Shown: one piece after another, positions 4,769-62,254 of the stretch | Layout of the letters: every line of letters begins with the position of its first letter | Position numbering within the stretch: position 1 is the stretch's first letter | Source: Candidatus Yanofskybacteria bacterium RIFCSPLOWO2_02_FULL_45_18 | GTDB lineage: Bacteria > Patescibacteriota > Minisyncoccia > 2-02-FULL-40-12 > GWA2-44-9 | DNA: 62,254 nucleotides | Reading direction: 5' to 3' | Assembly (NCBI GenBank): GCA_001795795.1 | Contig: MGKV01000007.1 | Coordinates: 14,553 to 76,806, forward strand | Notes under the pieces: generated by a model | Databases searched by the model: none | Told to the model about the DNA's origin: nothing | Seen by the model: only the letters and a program-made list of their open reading frames with translations | Translations under genes and position numbers: made by a program

Positions 4769-4860
4769 ATTAAAAATGCAAAGTGAAAAATTAAAAATTC
4801 AGGTTATTGAAAATTTTTATAAAAATTTTTAATTTTAATCATTTTGATTTTTGAATTTTA

Positions 4861-6276: not shown

Positions 6277-6353
6277 ATTAATCGACAATTGACAACAAAC
6301 AACTGACAACTTTTGTTATAAGTTGCAAGTTGCCACAGCAAGGAGGTGTCTAT

Positions 6354-6677: not shown

Positions 6678-6798
6678 GAATTAGAATTTAGAAATTAGAA
6701 GTGAGAAAAAATTTACTTCTAGTTTCTATTCTCTAATTTCTAATCAGCCATCAGATTTATACTATTTGATTAGAAATTAGTAACCATAGATTGTTGTT

Positions 6799-7143: not shown

Positions 7144-7171
7144 AAATTTTCAATTTTTAATTTTAAATTTC

Positions 7172-7203
7172 CAATGAATTTTCAATGTCGCATTGATTCA
7201 TTG
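7172..7203 (+). repeat. CAATG-hairpin spacer element, copy 1
   Basis: CAATGAATTTTCAATGTCGCATTGATTCATTG. Near-identical copies lie at 24067 and 47734. Confidence 0.75.
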
Positions 7204-7211
7204 ATAATTTA

Positions 7212-24038: not shown

Positions 24039-24066
24039 AAATTTACATTTTCCATTTTCCAATTCC

Positions 24067-24098
24067 CAATGAATTCTCAATGTAACATTGGCTCATTG
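24067..24098 (+). repeat. CAATG-hairpin spacer element, copy 2
   Basis: CAATGAATTCTCAATGTAACATTGGCTCATTG. Confidence 0.75.
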
Positions 24099-24130
24099 TA
24101 AAATTGAATGGGAATTGATAATTGGTAATT

Positions 24131-26056: not shown

Positions 26057-26155
26057 AATTGAAATATCAAAATGCAAAATTCAGGTTATTCAAAATTGGA
26101 AGCCAATTTTGAATTTCAATAATTTTTATTTTTGATTTTTAAATTTTAAATTTGT

Positions 26156-27391: not shown

Positions 27392-27648
27392 AAAGAGATC
27401 TCTTTATCCATTCCGCCCACACATCAATGTAGGGGCGGGATTCCGAAGTTGCAATGTGTAGCTTGATTTGCAACTTCTCCACAGATTTATCCACAGGAAT
27501 AAAGGGCGTGCTTGCGTGCCTTTTTCTTTTATGATAAACCGTCATATACGGAAATTTTCAATTATCAGTTACCAATTTCTATTCAATTATCAATTGGCCA
27601 ATGTAATATTGTAAATTCGTTGGAAATTGTAAATTGTAAATTTGCGCC

Positions 27649-28818
27649 ATGGCTCAAATAAAACCCCCATTTGAAACATTTGCCAGAATAAAAGTTGTCG
27701 GAGCGGGCGGCTCGGGCGGCAACGCATTGGCTAGAATGATTGAAGCCAGAATTCATGGCGTTGAATTTATCGCCGTCAATACGGACGCCCAAGCGCTTCA
27801 TAATTCCAAGGCTTCCGCTAAAGTTCATATCGGCAAAAGCTTAACCAAGGGTTTGGGGGCGGGAATGAATCCGGAAGTGGGCCGACAGGCGGCGGAAGAC
27901 ACCAAGGAAGAAATACTTAATGCCCTAAAGGGCGCCGATATGGTTTTTATTACCTGTGGTTTGGGCGGCGGCACCGGCACCGGCGCCGCACCGATAATTG
28001 CCGATATCGCCAAAGATATCGGAGCGCTTACGGTAGCTGTGGTTACCAAGCCGTTTAGTTTTGAAGGCGCGCAAAGATCTCGGATTGCTGAAGATGGTTG
28101 GGCGATTTTGCGCGACAAAGTCGATTCTCTCATCACGATCCCCAATGACCGCATCCTTTCCATAATTGACCGTAAGACCCCGATGCTCGAAGCATTTGCG
28201 ATTGTTGACGATGTCTTAAGGCAGGGAGTTCAGGGAATTTCCGATCTTATTACCATTTCAGGAGTAATAAATGTTGACTTTGCCGATGTTAAAACGATTA
28301 TGACTAATTCGGGTTCGGCGCTTATGGGAATCGGACGGGCGACAGGCGATGACAGAGCGATTGAGGCGGCCAAAATGGCAATTAATTCTCCCCTGCTTGA
28401 AGTTTCAATTGACGGAGCCAAGGGGGTTTTATTCAATGTGTGCGGATCGCAGGATATGGCCATGGCCGAAATTAACGAAGCCGCTCGGGTGATTACCGAA
28501 CATATTGACCCCGATGCTAAGGTTATTTTCGGTGCCGTTGTTGACGATAGCATCAAAAAAGGCGAATTGAAGATTACCGTTGTTGCTACGGGATTTACTA
28601 ATGGCCATACACCCTCATCGCGCCCGACGCTTTCGGTAAGCCCTAATTTATTCAGCGACGCCGGTATTCGCCGGCCAACACCCCCTTTGTCAGGTATTCC
28701 GCCAGCTAATGCTGTTTCTGCGCTCGGCAACAACAAGGAAATTAAAGAATTTGTTGACTCTTCGGTGGGTGAAGACGATTTTGATATTCCAGCATTCATT
28801 AGGCGGAAGATGAAGTAA
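27649..28818 (+). CDS. ftsZ: Cell division protein FtsZ
   Basis: [10 protein letters not shown] tubulin signature and the C-terminal DIPAFIRR peptide. Confidence 0.97.
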
Positions 28819-46642: not shown

Positions 46643-47290
46643 GTGCAAACAAGTTTATATAATCAAAATTGGGAAAAAGTGGGAGAAGTAACTTTGGCGG
46701 AAGATGTTTTTGGCGCAAAAACAAATCAAGATTTGGTTTATCAGGTTGTTACCTCGCAGATGTCTAATCGAAGACAGAATATTGCACACACTAAGACCAG
46801 ATCGGAAACAAGAGGCGGAGGCAAAAAACCTTGGCGCCAAAAAGGCACCGGCAGAGCCAGGCATGGTTCAATCCGTTCGCCGATTTGGAGGGGTGGCGGG
46901 GTTACTTTCGGTCCGTCCAGAGATAAAATTTTTAAAAAGAAAATTAACGAGAAAATGGCGCGAAAAGCCACTGCCGTAGTTTTATCTGAAAAATTGAGGA
47001 GCGATTCTTTGCTGGTTGTTGACAACATAACCCTCAAGGACAACAAAACCAAAGAGATGGCCGAAATTGTGAAGAATATGACTAAAGCGGTTAAGAAAAT
47101 TAAACCCAACGACAGTATCTTGCTGATAACGACCACGCCAGACGAGGGAATTAGGCGGTCTTCTATGAATTTGCCCAGAGTTAATATCGCGGAGGCAAGG
47201 AACATAAATGCCCTTGACTTACTGTCATTCAAATATGCGGTTATTTTGAAAGATGCGGTTGCTGTAATTGCTCAAAACTTAAAACGGTAA
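46643..47290 (+). CDS. rplD: 50S ribosomal protein L4
   Basis: GGGKKPWRQKGTGRARHGS motif. GTG start. Confidence 0.95.
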   Translation: MQTSLYNQNWEKVGEVTLAEDVFGAKTNQDLVYQVVTSQMSNRRQNIAHTKTRSETRGGGKKPWRQKGTGRARHGSIRSPIWRGGGVTFGPSRDKIFKKKINEKMARKATAVVLSEKLRSDSLLVVDNITLKDNKTKEMAEIVKNMTKAVKKIKPNDSILLITTTPDEGIRRSSMNLPRVNIAEARNINALDLLSFKYAVILKDAVAVIAQNLKR

Positions 47291-47704: not shown

Positions 47705-47733
47705 ACAATTTTCAATTTCCATGTATCAATTTT

Positions 47734-47765
47734 CATTGAATTTTCAATGTTACATTGACTCATTG
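47734..47765 (+). repeat. CAATG-hairpin spacer element, copy 3
   Basis: CATTGAATTTTCAATGTTACATTGACTCATTG. Confidence 0.75.
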
Positions 47766-47858
47766 GAAATTGTCCCGGTATCTACTGGTTATAATCAGAA
47801 GAAATCGAGGACTCTCGATAACGAAGTTACCGGAGTAAATTGATAACTGGAAATTTGT

Positions 47859-48683: not shown

Positions 48684-48684
48684 C

Positions 48685-48770
48685 AAGAATAATAAGAATA
48701 AGCAGAATTATTAGAATTATAAGGTGCGGCCTGATAATTCCAATAATTCTAAATTCTGATAATTCTAAGT
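48685..48770 (+). repeat. AGAATAATAAGAAT spacer element, copy a
   Basis: AAGAATAATAAGAATAAGCAGAATTATTAGAATTATAAGG... with an internal inverted repeat. Ends 1 nt before the rpsS ATG. Confidence 0.75.
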
Positions 48771-48771
48771 C

Positions 48772-49845: not shown

Positions 49846-50481
49846 ATGGGACAAAAAATTTCACCAATTTCATTAAGAATGGGAATTAACAAGGACTGGG
49901 TATCCCATTGGTTTAGCAGTCGTAAATATATTCCCTTTTTGAAAGACGAGGTTAAAATAAGAGATTTTTTCAGGGGGAAGTTGAAAAATATGGGGGTAGA
50001 TCGGATTGAAACAGAACGCGGCACGGACACATTTAATATCACAATTTTTACAGCTCGTCCGGGTTTAATAATCGGCGGAGGAGGTAGCGGCGTTGAAGAA
50101 TTGAAAAAAGCTATCTGCAAGTTGCTAAAAAAGAAAGTCGCGATCAGAATTGAGGTGCATGAGATTAAAACTCCCGAAGCTTCGGCGGCTGTAATGGCCG
50201 AGTCGATTGTTGATCAGATTGAAAAGCGACTTCCCTTTAGAAGGGTGATGAAACAGACGATAAGTAAAATAATGTCCAGCCGGGAAGTTAAGGGTGCCAA
50301 AATAAAAATAGGCGGACGGCTTGACGGGGCTGAAATAGCCAGAGTTGAACATTTGGAGGAAGGCAGTCTGCCATTGCAAACCTTAAGGGCTGATATAGAT
50401 TTTGCCAAAGCTACGGCGCATACAACCTATGGCACCGTAGGGGTGAAAGTGTGGATTTATAAGGGGGAAGTCTTCGAATAA
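49846..50481 (+). CDS. rpsC: 30S ribosomal protein S3
   Basis: MGQKISPISLR, a KH domain and GRL.GAEIAR.E motif. Confidence 0.97.
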   Translation: MGQKISPISLRMGINKDWVSHWFSSRKYIPFLKDEVKIRDFFRGKLKNMGVDRIETERGTDTFNITIFTARPGLIIGGGGSGVEELKKAICKLLKKKVAIRIEVHEIKTPEASAAVMAESIVDQIEKRLPFRRVMKQTISKIMSSREVKGAKIKIGGRLDGAEIARVEHLEEGSLPLQTLRADIDFAKATAHTTYGTVGVKVWIYKGEVFE

Positions 50482-50520
50482 TCTTGCCGCATTTGACATG
50501 TGGCATTTGACCAAGTGTGT

Positions 50521-50548
50521 CAATTGTCAATTGTCAATTGTCAATTGT
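50521..50548 (+). repeat. (CAATTGT)x4 heptamer array, upstream of rplP
   Basis: Four exact tandem units, preceded by CATTTGACATGTGGCATTTGACC at 50490..50512. Confidence 0.95.
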
Positions 50549-50551
50549 TCT

Positions 50552-50959
50552 GTGTTGCAGCCATCGCGAGTAAAACATACTAAAGTTCACGGGGGTAGAT
50601 TGAAAGAAACCACATTGCGCGGGACGACTTTAAGTTTCGGAAGCTTCGGACTTAAAGCGCTGGAAGCTTCTTGGCTAAAAGCCAGTCAGTTGGAATCAGC
50701 TCGTCGAGCCATGACTCGTTTTGTGCAGCGAGGGGGGAAAATCTGGATTAGAGTATTTCCTGACAAGCCTAGAACCGCTAAAAGTTCGGAGGTGGGAATG
50801 GGCGGCGGCCGGGGGGCGCTGTCGCATTGGGTGGTGCCGGTTGAATCAGGTAGGATACTTTTTGAGATAGATGGGTTGCCGGAGGACCAAGCTCGCGAGG
50901 CGCTGCGTTTGGGTGCCCACAAACTGCCCATTAAATGCAGGATAATTAGCCGCAACTAA
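50552..50959 (+). CDS. rplP: 50S ribosomal protein L16
   Basis: A GTG start gives MLQPSRVKHTKVHGGR, matching the uL16 N-terminus. The track N-terminal extension merely reads through the repeat array. Confidence 0.93.
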   Translation: MLQPSRVKHTKVHGGRLKETTLRGTTLSFGSFGLKALEASWLKASQLESARRAMTRFVQRGGKIWIRVFPDKPRTAKSSEVGMGGGRGALSHWVVPVESGRILFEIDGLPEDQAREALRLGAHKLPIKCRIISRN

Positions 50960-51011
50960 CTTGTTCCCGCATCAAGGGACCGATTGGCCCAGCGGCGCGG
51001 GGAGTTGACTT

Positions 51012-51197
51012 ATGAAGAAAAATGAGTTACAAAATAAGGGCCGGAATGAACTATTGTCTTTGTTGGATGAATTAAGGGGCAAGCTTTTACAGCTTGACTT
51101 TGAACGCACAGAGAAGAGGATTAAGGATTCAAGCCAAGTTAAAAAAACAAAACAAGAAATTGCTAGAGCCCTTACGGCTATTAAATCGGCAAAATAA
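51012..51197 (+). CDS. rpmC: 50S ribosomal protein L29
   Basis: 61 aa, helical L..L..EL..LR pattern and its position. Confidence 0.9.
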
Positions 51198-51457
51198 TGA
51201 TTACTGAACACAAAAAAGAAAAAAACGGGCGCATTCTCGACGGCGTTGTCGTATCTGACAAAATGACAAAAACAGTGGTAGTGGAAATTTTGCACTTGAA
51301 ACAACACCCCAAGTATAAGAAATATTTCAAAGTTACCCGACGTTATAAAACGCATGATCCGGAAAGCCGGTACCATGTTGGGGACAAAGTTATAATTCAG
51401 GAAACAAGACCGATATCAAAAGATAAGAGATGGATAGTAGTAAGCAAGGCCGACTAA
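51197..51457 (+). CDS. rpsQ: 30S ribosomal protein S17
   Basis: G.VVSDKM.KT.VV......HP.YKK motif. Confidence 0.95.
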
Positions 51458-51495
51458 TGTATAACATTTGACATGTGACATTTGACCGAATGAGT

Positions 51496-51529
51496 CAATT
51501 GTCAATTGTCAATTGTCAATTGTCAATTG
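51496..51529 (+). repeat. (CAATTGT)x4 plus CAATTG array, upstream of and into the rplN start
   Basis: Preceded by ACATTTGACATGTGACATTTGACC at 51464..51487. The final TTG (51527..51529) is the inferred start codon. Confidence 0.95.
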
Positions 51530-51892
51530 CTACAGCTTCGTTCCATAGTAAATGTTGCAGACAATAGCGGCGCCAAAAAAGTCGGTGTGTTTAAGGTGTT
51601 GGGCGGTTCAAGGAAAGATTTTGCCGAGATAGGCGACACCGTGGTGGTTTCGGTCAAAGTGGCTGAGCCCAGAAAGCTTGTAAAGAAAAAGGATGTCTTG
51701 CGCGCATTAGTGGTTCGTCAGCGGAAACCCTTCAGGCGCAAAGATGGAAGTTATGTCCGTTTTGACGACAATGCGGTTGTTATTCTTGATGGCGTTGAGC
51801 CAAAAGGCGGCAGGATTTTTGGTCCGATTCCGCGTGAGATAAAAGAAAAAGGGTTTAACACGATTGCATCACTGGCGGAGGAAGTGGTCTGA
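51527..51892 (+). CDS. rplN: 50S ribosomal protein L14
   Basis: A TTG start gives MLQLRSIVNVADNSGAKK, matching the uL14 N-terminus. Confidence 0.93.
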   Translation: MLQLRSIVNVADNSGAKKVGVFKVLGGSRKDFAEIGDTVVVSVKVAEPRKLVKKKDVLRALVVRQRKPFRRKDGSYVRFDDNAVVILDGVEPKGGRIFGPIPREIKEKGFNTIASLAEEVV

Positions 51893-51895
51893 TGA

Positions 51896-51980
51896 AAGAA
51901 TAATAAGAATTAACAGAATTATAAGAGTTAGCAGAAGTTGGCCAGATTACTCGCATTATTCTTATACTTCTGCTTATTCC
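51896..51980 (+). repeat. AGAATAATAAGAAT spacer element, copy b
   Basis: AAGAATAATAAGAATTAACAGAATTATAAGAGTTAGCAG... Ends at the rplX ATG. Confidence 0.75.
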
Positions 51981-52286
51981 ATGAAATTAAAAAAGGGAGA
52001 CAATATAATAATGTTAAGCGGAAAAGACAAAGGTAAAACCGGAACAGTGTCGGCTGTTTTGCCGAATTTAAACAAGATGGTGATTGGCGGACTTAACTTA
52101 ATTAAAAAAAATGTGCGGGCGAGAAAACAAGGACAGAAAAGCCAGATAATTTCCAAAGAGAGACCGGTCAGTATATCCAGTGTAGCTCTGATGTGCAAGT
52201 CATGCGGCAAACCAACACGCGTCGGCTTTAGCATTGCGGAAAAAAGCAAAATCCGAATTTGTAAAAAATGCGGAGCCGAAGTTTGA
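51981..52286 (+). CDS. rplX: 50S ribosomal protein L24 with C-terminal CxxC..CxxC zinc-ribbon tail
   Basis: MKLKKGD.V...GKDKGK.G KOW motif. The tail is CKSCGKPTRVGF....ICKKCG. Confidence 0.92.
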   Translation: MKLKKGDNIIMLSGKDKGKTGTVSAVLPNLNKMVIGGLNLIKKNVRARKQGQKSQIISKERPVSISSVALMCKSCGKPTRVGFSIAEKSKIRICKKCGAEV

Positions 52287-52521
52287 TGAGGCGACGCCCC
52301 TCATTAACCCCGCCTCATTTCTGGATGGCGGTCAGCGGATCAGATTGGTGACGGGGTGGAGCGGAAGTTGGATAACTAAATTCAAAATGCAAAAATTAAA
52401 ATGTCCCGACTTCATCGAGGACTCTCGACGGAATCGGAGCAAAATTAATGTCAGTGACAATTCCGCAAGCGGAATTGTCACTTTCCCGAATTTTTAATTT
52501 TTCATTTTAAATTTTATTTCT

Positions 52522-53064
52522 ATGGCCAGATTGCTTGAAAAATATGTGAAAACCGTAAAACCTGCCCTGCAGAAAGAGTTTGGTTTTAAAAATATAATGC
52601 AGATACCGAGGATTGAAAAGGTTGTCATTAACGTCGGGATTGGAAAAATTATCAAAGACGATAAAGCCGTTGATAAGGTTAGAAAAGATCTGGCCCTTTT
52701 ATCGGGCCAAAAAACCATTGCTCGAAAAGCTAAAAAGTCAATCGCCGGTTTTAAAATAAGAGAGGGCATGGAGGTCGGCTATATGGTTACCTTGCGCGGT
52801 AAGAGGATGTATGATTTTATAGATAGGTTGATTTCAATTGCTTTGCCTCGATCAAAAGATTTTCGGGGAATTGATGCCGGAAATTTTGACGAAAGAGGCA
52901 ATCTCAACATTGGCATCAAGGAGCATAACATTTTTCCGGAGATTAGTTACGAAAGCTTAAAAGATATTTTTAGTTTGCAGATTACGGTTGTAACCAAAGC
53001 CCAGAGTCGTGAACAGGCGATTGCCCTGTTGCGCGGCGTTGGGTTCCCATTACAAAAAAGTTAA
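52522..53064 (+). CDS. rplE: 50S ribosomal protein L5
   Basis: NIMQIPRIEKVVIN.G and RGKRMYDFIDRL motifs. Confidence 0.97.
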   Translation: MARLLEKYVKTVKPALQKEFGFKNIMQIPRIEKVVINVGIGKIIKDDKAVDKVRKDLALLSGQKTIARKAKKSIAGFKIREGMEVGYMVTLRGKRMYDFIDRLISIALPRSKDFRGIDAGNFDERGNLNIGIKEHNIFPEISYESLKDIFSLQITVVTKAQSREQAIALLRGVGFPLQKS

Positions 53065-53181
53065 ATATTAAATATCAAAAATCAAAATGACAGATAAAAA
53101 TTCAAAAATAAATAAAATCAGCTCGTTTGTTTTGAGATTTGATTTTTAATTTTTGAATTTGACTGAGTAAAACGAAGGAAC

Positions 53182-53367
53182 ATGCCTAAAAAATCAACAA
53201 TTGCCAGATCAAACAAAAGGCCCAAATTTTCAAGCCGGATAGTGAACAGGTGTTTTATGTGTGGACGAAAAAAAGGATATTTAAGAAAATTTGGTTTATG
53301 CCGTATAGATTTTAGAGAATTAGCTAGCGCTGGCTTGCTTCCCGGAGTAACAAAATCAAGTTGGTAA
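53182..53367 (+). CDS. rpsN: 30S ribosomal protein S14 (short, type Z-like)
   Basis: 61 aa, MPKKS.IA....[24 protein letters not shown]. The fourth Cys is replaced by Asp. Confidence 0.94.
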
Positions 53368-53404
53368 CATACAACCTTTGACACGTGACCCTTGACAGCA
53401 ATGT

Positions 53405-53438
53405 CAAATGTCAATTGTCAATTGTCAATTGTCAATTG
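53405..53438 (+). repeat. CAAATGT plus (CAATTGT)x3 plus CAATTG array, upstream of and into the rpsH start
   Basis: Preceded by CCTTTGACACGTGACCCTTGACAGCAATGTCAA. The final TTG (53436..53438) is the inferred start codon. Confidence 0.95.
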
Positions 53439-53834
53439 GATCCAATCGCCGACATGTTAATAAGGATAAAAAACGCGCAACTGGTTGCGAAAGACCACGT
53501 CGTTTTTCCGTTTTCTAAAATTAAATTTACCATTGCCACGCTGCTTAAAAATAACGGATATGTTTCCGAAGTTAACAAAAGAAAAAGAAAAGCCAAAAAA
53601 ACAGAGCACGATTTTATTGAGATTGTTTTAAAATATTCAAATGGCTTGCCGAGGTTGCAGGGTTTTAAGTTGATAAGCAAACCCTCCCGCAGAATTTATA
53701 TAAAAGCATCTCGGATAAAACCGGTACGTTCGGGATTCGGTATGGCCATTATCTCAACTTCCAAAGGAATTATGTCGTCCAAGGAAGCATGGAAAGAAAA
53801 GTTGGGAGGAGAGCACATATGCGAGGTGTGGTAA
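53436..53834 (+). CDS. rpsH: 30S ribosomal protein S8
   Basis: A TTG start gives MDPIADMLIRIKNAQ, the canonical uS8 N-terminus. Confidence 0.94.
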   Translation: MDPIADMLIRIKNAQLVAKDHVVFPFSKIKFTIATLLKNNGYVSEVNKRKRKAKKTEHDFIEIVLKYSNGLPRLQGFKLISKPSRRIYIKASRIKPVRSGFGMAIISTSKGIMSSKEAWKEKLGGEHICEVW

Positions 53835-53842
53835 GCAAAGAT

Positions 53843-53914
53843 AGAATAATAAGAATTAGTAGAATTATAAGAATTATCGGGACTTTAATCTAATAATTCC
53901 AATAGTTCATAGTT
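53843..53914 (+). repeat. AGAATAATAAGAAT spacer element, copy c
   Basis: AGAATAATAAGAATTAGTAGAATTATAAGAATTATCGG...TAATTCCAATAGTTC. Ends at the rplF ATG. Confidence 0.75.
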
Positions 53915-54460
53915 ATGAGCAAGATCGGCAAAAAACCAATCACAATTCCGCAGGGCGTCGACATCAAAGTCGATGATTCTTCGGTTTTTGCCAAAGGTCC
54001 CAAAGGCGAGATTAGGCGTAATTTGCCAGATATGCTGACTGTTTCGGTGAGTGATGGTTTGGTAACCATAAGTCCGGTCGTTGGTGCTGGCAAGAGAAGC
54101 TCGGCAATGTGGGGTCTTTACCGGTCTTTGGTGCAGAATATGTTAACCGGCGTGGCGAGCGGATTTGAAAAAACCCTTGAATTTCAGGGCGTGGGCTATA
54201 AGGCTAATATCAAAGGCAAGGGACTTGAACTAAGTCTAGGTTATTCTCATCCGATTTTTTACCAAGCTCCGGAGGGTATAAACTTTAGTGTGGAGAAAAA
54301 CAGCATTACCGTTTCCGGTGTTGATAAGGAGTTGGTCGGACAGGTGGCGGCGGATATCAGGTCCAAGCGTAAGCCCGAACCATACAAGGGCAGCGGTATC
54401 CGTTATCGCGGAGAAATTATAAAGAAAAAAGCCGGTAAGAAAGCGGTAGCGACTTCATAA
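53915..54460 (+). CDS. rplF: 50S ribosomal protein L6
   Basis: SKIGKKPI.IP.GV and GVGYKA motifs. Confidence 0.96.
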   Translation: MSKIGKKPITIPQGVDIKVDDSSVFAKGPKGEIRRNLPDMLTVSVSDGLVTISPVVGAGKRSSAMWGLYRSLVQNMLTGVASGFEKTLEFQGVGYKANIKGKGLELSLGYSHPIFYQAPEGINFSVEKNSITVSGVDKELVGQVAADIRSKRKPEPYKGSGIRYRGEIIKKKAGKKAVATS

Positions 54461-54551
54461 CGGCAAATTACAAATTACAGATTCCAAATTCCAAACAAAT
54501 TCCGATGACTGAAGTTTCAGAATTAAACCATTAGAGTTGAATTTAAAAGTT

Positions 54552-54914
54552 ATGGACATAAAGAAAAAACAATTGAATAAGGTAACGAGGCACAAGCGTG
54601 TGCGCGCTAAAATTTATGGTACACCGGGTCGGCCGCGGGTATCGGTCTTTAAAAGCAACCGGCATTTTTATGCGCAGCTGATTGACGATGTTTCGGGTAA
54701 AACATTGACGGCAATAAGCGATTTAACAATATCCAAAGCAAACAAAAAGGGCCGTAACAAGGTCAATATTGCCGGAGAACTGGGTGAATTATTGGGCAAG
54801 AAAGCGAAAGAGCTTAATATCGGCAATGTTGTTTTTGATAAGGGCAGTTTTAAATATCACGGCCGGGTAAGTATTTTTGCTGACGGATTGCGTAAATCGG
54901 GGATTAACGTATGA
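54552..54914 (+). CDS. rplR: 50S ribosomal protein L18
   Basis: RHKRVRAKI.GT..RPR..VF.S..H.YAQ..DD motif. ATG at 54552. Confidence 0.95.
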   Translation: MDIKKKQLNKVTRHKRVRAKIYGTPGRPRVSVFKSNRHFYAQLIDDVSGKTLTAISDLTISKANKKGRNKVNIAGELGELLGKKAKELNIGNVVFDKGSFKYHGRVSIFADGLRKSGINV

Positions 54915-54928
54915 TCTGATTTAATTGA

Positions 54929-55489
54929 ATGGAACAAGAATTAAACAAAACTAGTATTGGGGCCGGATCGAGCGGCGGCCGCCAAACTTTCAAAAGAGGG
55001 CGGCGATTTGGTCGGGGATTTTCCGGTGGAGAGAAACGTTCCGAATATGACCAGAAAGTGTTGGATATTGCCCGAGTGGCGCGGGTGACCAAGGGTGGAA
55101 AAAGATTTAGCTTCCGTGCCACTATTGCAATTGGCGACGGCAAGGGTAGGGTAGGCGTTGGTATCGCAAAAGGAAAAGATGTTGCGCAATCCATACAAAA
55201 AGCCGCCGAACAAGCCAAAAAGAAACTTATTGCCGTAGTAACCGTGAATAATACGATTCCATATCAGGTTGAGGCCAAATACTCCAGCGCGATAGTGTTG
55301 CTAAAACCAGCCAGGGGGGGCGTTAAGGCGGGCGGACCGGTCCGTATAATTACCAAATTGGCCGGCATATCAAGTTTAACCGGCAAATTAATCAGGCGTA
55401 CCAACAACAAGCTGAATATTGCTATGGCCACAATCGAAGCGTTAAAGAAATTAAGGACTCGATCCAAAAATCAAAGCACAAGCGAATGA
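54929..55489 (+). CDS. rpsE: 30S ribosomal protein S5
   Basis: V.RV.KGG.RF.F.A....GD..G.VG.G.GKA motif. Confidence 0.96.
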   Translation: MEQELNKTSIGAGSSGGRQTFKRGRRFGRGFSGGEKRSEYDQKVLDIARVARVTKGGKRFSFRATIAIGDGKGRVGVGIAKGKDVAQSIQKAAEQAKKKLIAVVTVNNTIPYQVEAKYSSAIVLLKPARGGVKAGGPVRIITKLAGISSLTGKLIRRTNNKLNIAMATIEALKKLRTRSKNQSTSE

Positions 55490-57438: not shown

Positions 57439-57474
57439 CGCATAATAAAACCGCCTAGCCCGAAGAAGATTAGG
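57382..57474 (+). repeat. 93-bp direct repeat, copy 1 (last 19 secY codons, stop, and 5' half of the terminator)
   Basis: Matches 58697..58789 at 92 of 93 positions (T at 57427 versus C at 58742). Confidence 0.97.
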
Positions 57475-57497
57475 GCTGTGGGCGGTTTTATTATGCG
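57439..57497. terminator. Long bidirectional terminator hairpin after secY
   Basis: CGCATAATAAAACCGCC...GGCGGTTTTATTATGCG with an inner TAGCCC..GGGCT stem. Confidence 0.85.
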
Positions 57498-57519
57498 CGC
57501 ATTCTTAGGGATTCTAAAT

Positions 57520-57627
57520 TTTGGATTGCTTCTGCGTTACCACTGCACTTCTCGCTCGCCGTACTTTTAGTACACCTCCTCACAATGCTCAATTACGTTT
57601 CGACCTTGGTGAAGCTGGGGAGTTTTA
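57520..57627. repeat. ~110-nt cassette leader motif, copy B
   Basis: Colinear anchors with 24688..24796. Followed by TATAAT at 57639..57644. Confidence 0.55.
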
Positions 57628-57850
57628 GCGTTCCGGTGTATAATAGATGCCCTAAAATCTCAGCCAATTATGGGGTTGCATATTGAGCTATTCTATGCTG
57701 TAATGATAGATATAGAGCCTTTAAAATGCTGTGGCAAAACCAATCTGGTGGAGCCTAAATTCCATAAGGAAGCAGCAAATGTTCCGTTCAAATCCTTCCT
57801 CGGATAAGAGGAAAATGAAAATGCGCAAGGAAGCGCAAGGAGATAAGGCC

Positions 57851-58546
57851 ATGAGTACTGAGTTTGCATCTGCCGGCTTCACTGCCGGTCAGCTCAACGC
57901 CATCGTTAAGAAGCTTGGTGGCGAAGAGAGCGGGAGACAGTTTCTCCGTGGTGGCCTGACGGTCAGTTACCAGAAGCTGGCGCAGTTTGTCGGCTTAGAC
58001 GGAAAGGTCACTTTGGAGAATTTCATGAAATGTGTGACCAGCTGGCGCGAGCAAGATGGCGTCATATGTTTCAGCGTCACTTCCGATGGGACGACTGGTC
58101 CCCAGTGGGTTGAGCGTCTCAAGAAGAAAGGTTTTCAGCTCTCGAAGTGGGCCAAGGACGTTTTAAACTCAAAAGATTTCCAGCCCACAAACGGAGTTAC
58201 GACCGAAATTGCGGTTCTGAAGGGGATGCTGTTTGAGGATGACGATCGTATCACCAAGAAAATCCGCGCTGAAGCCAACCGCCGCAAGTTTACCAAGCCT
58301 AATGCTGAAGTTGCTTGCCTGATACGCGAAATGTTCACGGATGAGGAGATTGAAGCCATGGGTTTGGTGTGGATTACTACCATGCACGAACCCATCAAGG
58401 ATTCTGATGACGATCCGCACCTCCTCATTGTGTACCGCGACGTCAGTGGTCGCTGGTTGTACGCGTATTACGACGAGCCTGACTACTTGTGGAATCGTGA
58501 CTTTGGGTTCGCATTCGTTGTCCCGCAAGTTAGTCCTCAAGACTAA
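57851..58546 (+). CDS. Hypothetical protein (231 aa) carried by the secY-adk insertion
   Basis: AAGGAG 7 nt upstream of the ATG at 57851 (inside track ORF 57731..58546). C/G-ending codon preference. Aromatic C-terminal module ...GRWLYAYYDEPDYLWNRDFGFAFV. Confidence 0.75.
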   Translation: MSTEFASAGFTAGQLNAIVKKLGGEESGRQFLRGGLTVSYQKLAQFVGLDGKVTLENFMKCVTSWREQDGVICFSVTSDGTTGPQWVERLKKKGFQLSKWAKDVLNSKDFQPTNGVTTEIAVLKGMLFEDDDRITKKIRAEANRRKFTKPNAEVACLIREMFTDEEIEAMGLVWITTMHEPIKDSDDDPHLLIVYRDVSGRWLYAYYDEPDYLWNRDFGFAFVVPQVSPQD

Positions 58547-58583
58547 GATTCTTGGAACTTTTGTTCCTTTGATCTTAGTCCTT

Positions 58584-58626
58584 AGCCCCATTCCGGGCCG
58601 CCAGCTGGCGGAATCGGAATGGGGCT
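58584..58626 (+). terminator. Strong stem-loop after the cassette ORF
   Basis: AGCCCCATTCCG...CGGAATGGGGCT (12 bp) with an inner CCGCC-AGCT-GGCGG. Confidence 0.7.
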
Positions 58627-58696
58627 AAAATTTTGCATTAAAATTGGTAGATGTGGATTTTGTGTATACATGCCACCGGCTACGGCTTGGGATAGC

Positions 58697-58789
58697 GTGG
58701 CGTTGGAAATTATGAAACAATTGGACGCTCAGCTTAGTATGCATCAATACTAACGCATAATAAAACCGCCTAGCCCGAAGAAGATTAGG
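58697..58789 (+). repeat. 93-bp direct repeat, copy 2 (pseudo secY 3' end, lacks the 3' half of the terminator)
   Basis: See copy 1. Confidence 0.97.
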
Positions 58790-59017
58790 TTGGATGCCCT
58801 GCTGGAAAATCAGGAGCTCATCCCCGAGTCCTGGAAGAAAGATGAGCAAGGCAACACTCGCTATATATTTTTCTGGGGCACCATCTATCGCCGCGGCTCC
58901 GGTGGCCGCCTATATGTCCGCTCTCTGTGCTTCCACGATGGCGGGTGGTTCTGGTACTGCATCTGCCTTGACTACGACTTCTGTGGCCTCTACCCGGCAG
59001 CTGTCTCCGCAAGTTGA
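58790..59017 (+). pseudogene. 5'-truncated gene fragment abutting repeat copy 2
   Basis: The open frame begins exactly at the repeat boundary, with no SD or ATG. Encodes ...LIPESWKKDEQGNTRYIFFWGTIYRRGSGGRLYVRSLCFHDGGWFWYCICLDYDFCGLYPAAVSAS. Confidence 0.55.
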
Positions 59018-59073
59018 TCTGGTTTTTAGCACCTGGACTCATTGATTTTTGTCCTTGAATTCATTGGTGCTTG

Positions 59074-59097
59074 GCCCGCGCTTTTCGCGGGCTTTTT
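59074..59097 (+). terminator. Rho-independent terminator
   Basis: GCCCGCG-CTTT-TCGCGGGC followed by T5. Confidence 0.8.
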
Positions 59098-59218
59098 GCT
59101 ACTCAATTTAGTCAAAAAGAAGTTCTCAACCCCGCTCTTTTTGCAAAAGGGCGGGGTCAACAGGGACTTTCCAGTACTAACCAGTGACGGGACTTTTTAT
59201 TTTTAGTATTATAAATGC

Positions 59219-60775: not shown

Positions 60776-61644
60776 GCCACTGATAATGAATATCCTATAT
60801 AAAATTATTAATTTAAGTGGCTAATAAGCGTCTGGGGTTTCGCGCTCAAATCATGCCGCTTAAAGCGGCGTTTATATTTTATAAAGGAGTTTGCTGGGGC
60901 ATTTACAATCAATAATTGCAGCCGGTACCGGAAACAATTATTGGCGGTAAATGCAAGAATCTTGATAATTTAAGCCCGTGAGAAGTGTGGCACCGAAATG
61001 CCATCACAACCGTAGGGGTTACTTCTAAACGGGATAAAGTATGATAGCGGGTTAAGTTAATTTTAAATTTCCGTTGCGTAGCAACGGATGTGTTACTCAT
61101 TTGGAAGTCGTAACCAAGCTCTTTCGTAACGAAATTTCCAGATTTCGAGTGAAGCGAGGAAAAATTTTGATGTATACTGAACGTATATGGAAAAATTTTT
61201 CCGAAGCCATAGCCGAAATACGGGAATTGCAGTAGAAAAGGTTTGGTTACGACTTCCAACTAATAAGGGCGTATGGAGGATGCCTTGACACTAAAAGGCG
61301 ATGAAGGTCGTGGCGTGTCTGCGATAAGCTTCGGGGAGGCGACTAGCAGCCTTTGATCCGGAGATGACCGAATGGGAAAACCCCGCGCGGCAAACCCGCG
61401 CGAGCGCCGCTTTACAGCGAAGTTAAAAGTAAAAAATCAAAAGTCAAAATTTCAATTCAAAAGTTAAAAGTTTCAGACAATTTTTAATTTTAACTTGTAG
61501 TTTTGAATTTTGCATTTTGAATTTTGAATTCGCCGCAAAGCGGCGTGGCGTACCTGGCGAAGTGAAACATCTCAGTAGCCAGAGGAAAATAAATCAAAAA
61601 GATTTCCTTAATAGCGGCGAGCGAACGGGAAATAGCCTAAACCG

Positions 61645-61737
61645 TGTGGCTCACCTTTGTTGAGCCACCGCGGACTTTGCGGACTAAACGCGGAACTACG
61701 CGGACAAACTAAAAAATGTCTGCGTAAGTCGGCGTAA
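61645..61737 (+). repeat. rRNA insertion element, copy 1
   Basis: Identical over 93 nt to 62162..62254. Hairpin GTGGCTCA-N7-TGAGCCAC, then GCGGAC-type units. Confidence 0.97.
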
Positions 61738-62161
61738 AGTCAGCGTTAGTCGGCGGTGACGAGCAGAGGCGAGTCACATGGGGTAATAGGGATAGGACAC
61801 TTCTAGAATCTAGAAGATAGAATCCAGAAAGTAGAAAGAGGAGTAATCCAAATTCTATTTTCTGTTTTCTATTCTCTATTTTCTAGATAAAGAGTTACAA
61901 AGTTGGATGTTAGCAGAACGGCCCTGGAATGGCCGACCATAGCGGGTGACAGTCCCGTATGCGAAAATGTTCAACCTCTTGTTCTGTTACCTGAGTAGTC
62001 CGGGATAAGATTGTCCTGGGTGAATTTGCCCATACTACTGGGTAAGGCTAAATACTTTTAGTGATCGATAGTGAACCAGTACCGTGAGGGAAAGGTGAAA
62101 AGCACCCCGGTGAGGGGAGTGAAATAGTAACTGAAACCATATGCCTACAAAGAGCCGGAGC

Positions 62162-62254
62162 TGTGGCTCACCTTTGTTGAGCCACCGCGGACTTTGCGGA
62201 CTAAACGCGGAACTACGCGGACAAACTAAAAAATGTCTGCGTAAGTCGGCGTAA
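62162..62254 (+). repeat. rRNA insertion element, copy 2 (truncated by the window end), in the helix 25 loop region
   Basis: Identical to 61645..61737. Follows ...CCTACAAAGAGCCGGAGC. Confidence 0.95.

Follow-up and report, generated by a model that had tools for sequence, protein, structure and literature searches.

The ribosomal-protein operon within a 62,254-nt stretch of DNA from a Candidatus Yanofskybacteria bacterium (this whole stretch is called the window in the following) contains three copies of an element of about 60 nt, named E1, E2 and E3, which lie directly upstream of rplP, rplN and rpsH. All three belong to a wider class of inverted repeats of approximately 60-70 nt in which both arms consist of tandem 7-nt units, and which we refer to as heptamer-periodic hairpins. 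Hairpins of this class arise and change at the DNA level: arrays grow or shrink by 7-nt units, and entire hairpins appear, disappear or are exchanged for others. They were copied within and between genomes of the candidate phyla radiation (CPR), with 93% identity between different CPR lineages, and in the lineage of the window they colonised nearly every stop-to-start spacer of S10/spc as well as several helix tips of the 23S rRNA. We consider it probable that E1-E3 are copies of a mobile or slippage-driven heptamer-hairpin repeat, which is tolerated at junctions with Shine-Dalgarno (SD)-independent initiation, and not a dedicated leader. The three copies and their parts are as follows.

E1, 50490..50551, + strand: fills the spacer from rpsC (S3) to rplP (L16)
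E1 parts, + strand: 5' arm 50492-50511 (TTTGACA-TG-TGGCA-T-TTGAC), loop 50512-50518, 3' arm or array (GTCAATT)x4 50519-50548, then TCT
rplP start, GTG 50552..50554, + strand: protein MLQPSRVKH..., orthologues have ATG-(TTG/CTT/TTT)-CAA-CC here; the NCBI call is the same, the JGI and ENA calls differ
E2, 51464..51529, + strand: fills the 69-nt spacer from rpsQ (S17) to rplN (L14)
E2 parts, + strand: 5' arm 51467-51486, loop 51487-51493, array (GTCAATT)x5 51494-51529, the last TTG (51527-51529) being the rplN start by orthology (MLQLRSIV)
E3, 53374..53438, + strand: fills the 68-nt spacer from rpsN (S14) to rpsH (S8)
E3 parts, + strand: 5' arm 53377-53397, loop GCAA 53398-53401, array 53402-53438, the last TTG (53436-53438) being the rpsH start (MDPIADML)

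An earlier note on this DNA, made from the sequence alone, had described three copies of about 60 nt with CAATTGT arrays, and motif counts far above chance confirm this description. The + strand of the window carries the 20-nt 5' motif TTTGACAYGTGRCMYTTGAC at exactly three positions (50492, 51467 and 53377; 0.04 expected), and GTCAATTGTCAATTG with up to two mismatches gives 20 matches in the window (0.22 expected), 18 of which are located inside the three arrays. Tandem Repeats Finder (TRF) reports perfect or near-perfect period-7 arrays with 4.4 copies at 50518-50548, 5.1 at 51494-51529 and 5.3 at 53402-53438, and the units match each other by 96-100%. The three copies align from a point about 8 nt past the preceding stop codon as far as the next start, with a mean column identity of 78%. 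The array of E1 stops 3 nt before the start codon, whereas those of E2 and E3 overlap it. An assembly artefact can be dismissed because the sequences of five population assemblies of the window species are identical through E1-E3. No direct duplication was seen flanking E1-E3 and the whole element is itself the inverted repeat, so that the pair of features expected of a miniature inverted-repeat transposable element, terminal inverted repeats with a target-site duplication, is not found.

The small TTGAC-N7-GTCAA hairpin pointed out in the earlier note is present in E1 and E2, with TTGACA-GCAA-TGTCAA in its place in E3, but it is only the apex of a longer three-segment hairpin with a predicted stability of -19 to -25 kcal/mol and z scores down to -4.8. 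The 5' arm has the form (TTGACAN)3 and the 3' arm is the (GTCAATT)4-5 array. As the full 5' motif is heptamer-periodic too (ACATTTG-ACATGTG-ACATTTG-AC), its pairing with about three array units results in a three-segment stem with internal loops of 1-2 nt every 7 nt. The RNA fold of E1 has -22 to -23 kcal/mol (z -2.3 to -4.6) and that of E2 -22.5 to -24.7 kcal/mol (z -4.1 to -4.8), with none of 200 shuffled sequences equally stable. The surplus of units in the 3' arm allows alternative registers of nearly equal energy: in E2 the register nearest the start is favoured with flanks (-24.7), whereas without flanks the last ~10 nt stay free (-22.5). A G-U asymmetry test for selection at the RNA level gave no support (sense versus antisense minimum free energy 15:13 over 28 spacers, Wilcoxon p = 0.9). 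The equally good folding of sense and antisense in these spacers supports an origin of the hairpins at the DNA level.

Period-7 sequence is not restricted to E1-E3. The autocorrelation of the intergenic DNA of the window is 0.321 at lag 7 and 0.294 at lag 14 against a background of ~0.26, while coding DNA shows only period 3. Many different period-7 units are scattered over the spacers, often followed by their reverse complement, and in addition to the three copies of the GTCAATT family the window holds dozens of other period-7 arrays. Most co-directional spacers of at least 45 nt fold with z scores of about -3 to -11 compared with shuffles, at least four hairpin families recur in the window, and hardly any junction between rplW and rplO is free of a hairpin. 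The following hairpins illustrate these families and their counterparts in the 23S rRNA gene.

48684..48771, + strand: hairpin family of the rplB to rpsS spacer (AGAATAATAAGAATTA...), with kin copies at 51893-51981 (rplN to rplX) and 53835-53914 (rpsH to rplF)
47705..47770, + strand: hairpin family of the rplW to rplB spacer with a CAATG...CATTG core, kin copies at 7144-7211 and 24039-24121
52378..52521, + strand: A/T-rich heptamer hairpin (AAATTCAAAATG... / ...CATTTTAAATTT) upstream of rplE, kin arrays at 4769-4860, 26057-26155 and 53065-53165
61415..61538, + strand: 123-nt heptamer-arm hairpin in the 23S rRNA gene, at position ~165 of the Rfam LSU model, which has 7 nt there
61787..61893, + strand: second 23S heptamer-arm hairpin (TCTAGAA.../...TTCTATT) at model position 312, with a 20-nt stretch in common with the spacer at 6723-6742

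Among the copies of the AGAATAATAAGAATTA family, stretches of 27-35 nt are 89-93% identical. Compared with the Rfam model the 23S gene carries at least four inserts, of 123, 124 and ~107 nt and one further insert, at positions ~165, ~285, 312 and ~583, and the hairpin at 61415..61538 has exact stretches of 15-17 nt in common with mRNA spacers. The 23S gene begins in 61253-62254, and no 16S rRNA gene lies upstream of it within the window. An insert of ~125 nt at 61650-61775 recurs with 100% identity at 62167-62254 and beyond, i.e. at a second 23S position. Elsewhere in the window, GACAATT/GACAACT units (the reverse orientation of GTCAATT) are located at 6279-6311 upstream of a gene at 6330, and ATCAATT/ATCAGTT units, the reverse complement of MacGregor's TAACTGA, are followed by a TTGTAAA array at 27553-27642 upstream of a gene at 27649.

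The corresponding operons of related genomes were compared, four of them hairpin-free (L126, L127, L270 and L271) and four hairpin-bearing (L269, L272, L273 and L274; L269 is ENA ERZ27254752 k141_1688056). The earlier note had regarded absence of the element from the orthologous junctions of every relative as a refutation of its reading. The element is absent in L126, L127, L270 and L271, where the three junctions have spacers of 1-22 nt and ATG starts, and L269 and L273 carry different heptamers. Hairpin-rich operons are longer by 650-1000 nt between S3 and secY. In L269, a second Yanofskybacterium whose L5 protein bears the name of Candidatus Yanofskybacteria RIFCSPHIGHO2_02_FULL_43_22, a family of the form CCAACGA... 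/ GTCGTAA... occupies the junctions L29 to S17, S17 to L14 (69 nt) and S14 to S8 (70 nt); each copy ends in GTCA(A)G-TTG and folds with -27 to -30 kcal/mol. The S17 to L14 spacer is thus filled by a 69-nt hairpin in the window (GTCAATT), one of 69 nt in L269 (GTCGTAA) and one of 71 nt with an ATG start in L273 (CTAGTCG), whereas L274 has only 17 nt at this junction. L269 and L273 also carry one hairpin family at different junctions. A recent shared ancestor was considered as source of the elements of the window and L269. The two are not sisters by concatenated ribosomal proteins (65.6% identity, compared with 68.8% between L269 and the hairpin-free L127), so that the same position and size of the hairpins in both would require either several losses or convergence.

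Direct evidence for change in steps of 7 nt comes from L269 and L272, which are near-identical over 3.8 kb. One array differs between them by exactly one CGTAATG unit, and the hairpin between rpsH and rplF has been replaced. Before rpsN, one member of the pair has a 65-nt hairpin and a GTG start, whereas the other lacks this hairpin and uses ATG. The two sequences also show sharply divergent patches exactly around the spacers that differ in their hairpins (L269 3800-4200 and 4760-4830), which is suggestive of recombination tracts or of faster change close to the elements. Copying between CPR genomes is illustrated by a Nealsonbacteria-like contig (38% GC), whose spacer from rpmJ to rpsM is filled by a copy that matches E2 at 92.6% over 68 nt; a GTG start of S13 follows directly. 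In relatives of this contig with 84-87% identity in S13, the spacer measures only 5 nt or holds an unrelated insert, and the starts are ATG. The copy is identical in six assemblies, and rpmJ of the same contig has another heptamer hairpin upstream and a GTG start where the relatives have ATG.

Exact (GTCAATT)n arrays with n of at least 3 were found in more than 120 genome contigs of Cyanobacteria, Bacteroidota, Clostridia, Planctomycetota, Chloroflexota and CPR bacteria, often next to variant heptamers or in inverted pairs; the hosts include Calothrix, Anabaena, Microcoleus and Crocosphaera. A search of metagenomes with the 5'-arm pattern retrieved many hairpins with heptamer arms. On low-GC CPR-like contigs these are versions of ~60-70 nt which usually end 0-10 nt before a start, and the genes that follow encode L18, L15, L19, S13, NusB, ProB, MurA with a PEGA protein (as a divergent pair), an AI-2E transporter and PyrB. 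The copies before L18 and L15 are 97% alike and lie on one contig, and a Patescibacteria contig has a direct array of 13 units before rpsD. For ten family members on other contigs, the predicted folds have z scores between -2.9 and -5.7. On high-GC soil contigs the hairpins are longer, flanked by GGGGAC and not tied to starts. These contigs (L149, L187, L210, L216, L219, L222, L236, L240 and L242; 55-57% GC) carry a distinct family of near-perfect hairpins of ~90 nt with the structure (ACATTTG/ACACGTG/ACGCGTG)n ... (CACGTGT/CAAATGT)n, flanked by GGGGACGGGGAC and its complement. Phages were considered as a vector for the spread and rejected: all 12 matches of the 5' arm in IMG/VR are chance matches inside coding sequence and without an array.

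The start codons proposed in the earlier note, GTG 50552, TTG 51527 and TTG 53436, hold up in the alignment with orthologues from five relatives, which have ATG-TTG-CAA-CCA (MLQPS), ATG-TTG-CAA-TTA (MLQLRS) and ATG-(ACA)-GAC-CCA-ATT (M(T)DPIS) at the matching positions. The predicted N-terminal peptides under these starts are MLQLRSIVNVADNSGAK, MDPIADMLIR and MLQPSR. In L269 an in-frame stop two codons upstream of the TTG of both rplN and rpsH excludes translation through the repeat and forces the TTG start. The idea that the last repeat supplies the start codon applies only to E2 and E3, as rplP starts with the GTG behind the array. It was also correct that an SD is lacking: GGAG, GAGG or AGGA is not found in the last 20 nt before the three starts. 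Almost all operon genes of the relatives with 1-22-nt spacers are likewise SD-less, and the missing SD is therefore the local norm of the operon and not a property of the element; GGAGG does precede a few other genes of the window.

Public annotations disagree about these starts. For the region 49846-55489 of the window (calls on L121-L125), L16 and L14 have three different starts each across the ENA, NCBI and JGI gene callers, the starts of S3, L24, L18 and S5 vary as well, and for S8 all three use an internal ATG at 53454. The N-termini of ribosomal proteins in public annotations of these genomes are thus unreliable, and CPR marker alignments built from such annotations carry wrong N-termini. 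Non-ATG codons account for 10 of 30 starts in two hairpin-rich operons and for 2 of 53 in the four operons without hairpins (Fisher p = 4.6e-4), which makes them about nine times commoner where hairpins are abundant. A strict rule that an array abutting the start goes with a non-ATG codon was rejected, since ATG is used by rpsS, rplV, rplE and rplF of the window, by L22 of L269 and at the hairpins of L273 and L274; the link is statistical and not absolute. The rplD gene (L4) seems to start with GTG at 46643 behind a hairpin-free spacer of only 17 nt, so non-ATG starts are not exclusive to hairpin-abutted genes.

For a tolerated heptamer-hairpin repeat the following course of events seems probable. 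The element would be transcribed within the polycistronic mRNA and fold into a segmented stem-loop, which would bring the upstream stop and the downstream start codon near to each other in space, while the last one or two CAAUUGU units may stay available as an A/U-rich, SD-free landing sequence. Insertions would be tolerated because the cistrons are SD-independent and probably coupled to, or reinitiated after, the upstream cistron, and this mode of initiation would also tolerate weak UUG or GUG starts. Any function would lie in being a hairpin at a junction and not in the sequence, which would leave no sequence-specific operator.

Several points weigh against this explanation. Every step beyond a DNA that can fold is one that we infer from sequence. 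The pairing of the post-stop flank with the start region is at the level of shuffled flanks (p 0.1, 0.24, 0.51 and 0.69), and the unpaired probability of the start codons (0.28-0.40 at the codon, 0.38-0.48 over -12 to +12) is lowish and within the range of other genes and relatives; the coupling model is therefore without specific structural support. A transposase, a target-site duplication or other mobilising machinery was not identified, and Pfam scans of ten window proteins detected no transposase. Among the genes downstream of copies on other contigs, about 4-5 of 11 encode ribosomal proteins (L18, L15, L19, S13 and S4) compared with ~6% expected, which hints at a translation-related role. 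In addition, the shared TTG-ending architecture of 69-70 nt at the same two junctions of two non-sister species could reflect selection for function. Both the recurrent ~70-nt architecture and the enrichment at ribosomal-protein genes would be compatible with a genuine structural role.

It is possible, although we regard it as rather unlikely, that the ~70-nt hairpins of roughly ten heptamers represent a self-propagating CPR cassette, which inserts precisely from stop to start, rewrites ATG to TTG or GTG and provides a structural bridge by which terminating ribosomes could reinitiate across a long spacer without an SD. If true, this would explain why unrelated heptamers form the same architecture at S17 to L14 and S14 to S8 in non-sister species, and also the over-representation of ribosomal-protein genes and the weak starts beside the cassettes.

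The special ribosomal-protein leader or operator considered in the earlier note is not supported: an SD-less operon is the norm here, the element is one of several hairpin families that fill almost all spacers and also 23S helix tips, four relatives do without it, kin copies precede the non-ribosomal genes murA, proB, pyrB and nusB, no + strand promoter-like site lies within it, and there is no Rfam match. Another reading, which we judge to be doubtful, would see in the array an SD-independent element for initiation or regulation. Here the ribosome itself, or an RNA-binding protein such as S1 or a cold-shock protein, would bind the single-stranded CAAUUGU repeats, and the synthesis of L16, L14 and S8 would thereby be coordinated. 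This is in line with arrays that end 0-3 nt from an SD-less start, with the orientation of all four closest copies, whose array side faces the gene, and with the enrichment of family members before ribosomal-protein genes; the same has been speculated for other heptamers including TAACTGA (PMC4679880; bioRxiv 10.1101/2022.06.06.494920). On the other hand, the orthologous junctions carry wholly different heptamers (GTCGTAA, CTAGTCG) or none, many unrelated heptamers take the equivalent position within the same operon, pairing in the hairpin takes up about three of the 4-5 units, and hairpins of the same class occur in rRNA, where initiation does not take place.

In other bacteria, RNase III excises intervening sequences at helix tips of the 23S rRNA. 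By analogy, the hairpins may serve as intercistronic processing or stability elements, i.e. as RNase III-type substrates or exonuclease barriers that segment the mRNA, which likewise appears to be a tentative explanation at best. Long, segmented stems of -19 to -32 kcal/mol would suit such a role, the same hairpin class is found at 23S helix tips, and one report describes a heptamer repeat region with an RNase III-targeted element in a 5' untranslated region of Haemophilus (PMC12721329). The folding shows no strand asymmetry, though, and processing is compatible with a selfish origin of the hairpins and not an alternative to it.

Much less probable is an upstream start with the array translated as an N-terminal extension (QLSIVNC repeats), or a phase-variable contingency repeat. 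CAATTGT is stop-free in every frame, in-frame upstream candidates (ATG 50498, TTG 51506, GTG 53385 and TTG 53415) exist and are used by some gene callers, and another array differs in length by one unit between strains (L269/L272), but the orthologues begin exactly at the proposed codons and the L269 frame is closed two codons before the TTG of rplN and rpsH. The length variation expected of a phase-variable contingency locus is not seen in the three arrays among the five assemblies, and with a start codon in or behind the last unit, unit changes would not shift the frame.

An autogenous operator that mimics an rRNA site, as in E. coli spc (S8) or S10 (L4), is hardly to be expected and already largely refuted: the elements do sit at starts of ribosomal-protein cistrons, one of them rpsH, but there is no match to an Rfam leader (a scan of the whole window at gathering thresholds gave only the 23S rRNA and three tRNAs), three different cistrons are preceded here and rpsM in another lineage, four relatives lack the element, it turns over between strains, and kin copies stand before murA, proB, pyrB and nusB. 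An internal promoter with TTGACA boxes, likewise suggested in the earlier note, or a transcription-factor operator in the DNA is just as improbable. Two TTGACA/TTGACC boxes are present and E2 takes the position of the spc promoter in E. coli, but a -10-like hexamer at 16-18 nt is missing on the + strand, and a consensus scan placed none of its + strand sites within the 5' arms or hairpins; the only + strand site touching an element (51520-51549, 9/12) runs from the last E2 unit into rplN, the one other site in contact with an element lies on the - strand (TTGACA-17-GACAAT, 51526-51498), the total of 32 sites is near chance (23 +/- 5), genuine promoters of the window have the form TTGACx-N17-TAnnnT, and TTGACA merely complements the TGTCAA arm and is missing from the analogous elements of L269 and L273.

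Some further features of the window concern the neighbourhood of the operon. Its L5 protein matches the one of Candidatus Yanofskybacteria bacterium RIFCSPHIGHO2_01_FULL_45_42 at 100% identity. As in CPR bacteria generally, an L30 gene is absent between rpsE and rplO. The interval between secY and adk (57439-59218) contains an open reading frame of 271 amino acids (57731-58546) without a Pfam match, and the 3' end of secY together with a terminator-like hairpin (cgcataataaaaccgcctagcccgaagaagattagg) is duplicated at about 58.7 kb. This arrangement looks like an insertion with target duplication.

Among known systems, E1-E3 are most reminiscent of the TAACTGA repeats of Beggiatoaceae, Cyanobacteria and Bacteroidetes, intergenic sets of 2-6 tandem 7-nt copies oriented toward the start, which mostly end about 1 nt upstream of it, mostly lack an SD and in some cases lie inside ribosomal-protein operons (MacGregor, 2015; PMC4679880). 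Their function is unexplained and horizontal spread is suspected; BOGUAY contains 169 sets (PMC4679880). Tandem heptamers, copy number, intergenic position, orientation, the end near the start and the missing SD are common to both. The unit CAATTGT (GTCAATT) is identical to TAACTGA at only 4 of 7 positions in register, which makes it a variant and not a strict member. Moreover, the array of E1-E3 is the 3' arm of a hairpin with a complementary heptamer 5' arm, whereas only one inverted repeat was reported for BOGUAY (PMC4679880). The host of E1-E3 is a CPR bacterium in whose genome many different heptamers occur together, and the link to TTG/GTG and insertions in rRNA are not described for TAACTGA. 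The statement of the earlier note that no such leader has been described is thus only partly right, as heptamer repeats at SD-less starts were already reported (PMC4679880), while the hairpin form was not found described.

Heptanucleotide repeats of Cyanobacteria, known as STRR (short tandemly repeated repetitive sequences), were reportedly described by Mazel in 1990. In Nostoc, heptamer repeats lie near or overlap start codons (bioRxiv 10.1101/2022.06.06.494920). The STRR and Nostoc repeats resemble E1-E3 as intergenic, over-represented tandem heptamers which sometimes overlap starts and sometimes occur as inverted pairs (bioRxiv 10.1101/2022.06.06.494920; PMC4692102); unlike E1-E3 they are mostly long direct arrays, for which ~70-nt stop-to-start cassettes are not shown and a link to junctions of ribosomal-protein operons or to non-ATG starts is not reported. 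Repetitive extragenic palindromes (REP), bacterial interspersed mosaic elements (BIME) and REPINs of proteobacteria (PMC3116915) are also families of short extragenic hairpins, often intercistronic, transcribed and mobile within genomes, and E1-E3 share with the REPIN type the extragenic inverted-repeat hairpin of two units in multi-copy families. REPINs differ in being doublets of imperfect palindromes of ~20 nt tied to a RAYT transposase, without 7-nt periodicity and not abutting starts (PMC3116915). The rRNA inserts of the window correspond to intervening-sequence or expansion hairpins at 23S helix tips, but here the same class is also found between protein-coding cistrons.

Our search of the literature for SD usage or heptamer hairpins in CPR bacteria yielded nothing, and the hairpin-cassette form, CPR hosts, the invasion of a whole operon and of rRNA and the association with non-ATG starts were not found described. 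The hairpin form in CPR bacteria and the non-ATG link therefore look new, whereas heptamer arrays at SD-less starts are already known. What appeared as a puzzling leader thus turns out to be part of a genome-wide phenomenon, in which certain CPR lineages carry hairpins at practically all junctions of the operon that they express most highly and also in the rRNA, while close relatives are compact. The presence or absence of a 65-nt hairpin in near-identical strains, which goes with GTG versus ATG, is a natural experiment on SD-less translation. The over-representation of heptamer repeats is known from bacteria in general (PMC4692102, citing Mrazek, 2007), and the findings presented here extend it (Mrazek, 2007; MacGregor, 2015) to CPR bacteria, where the change in steps of 7 nt is shown directly.

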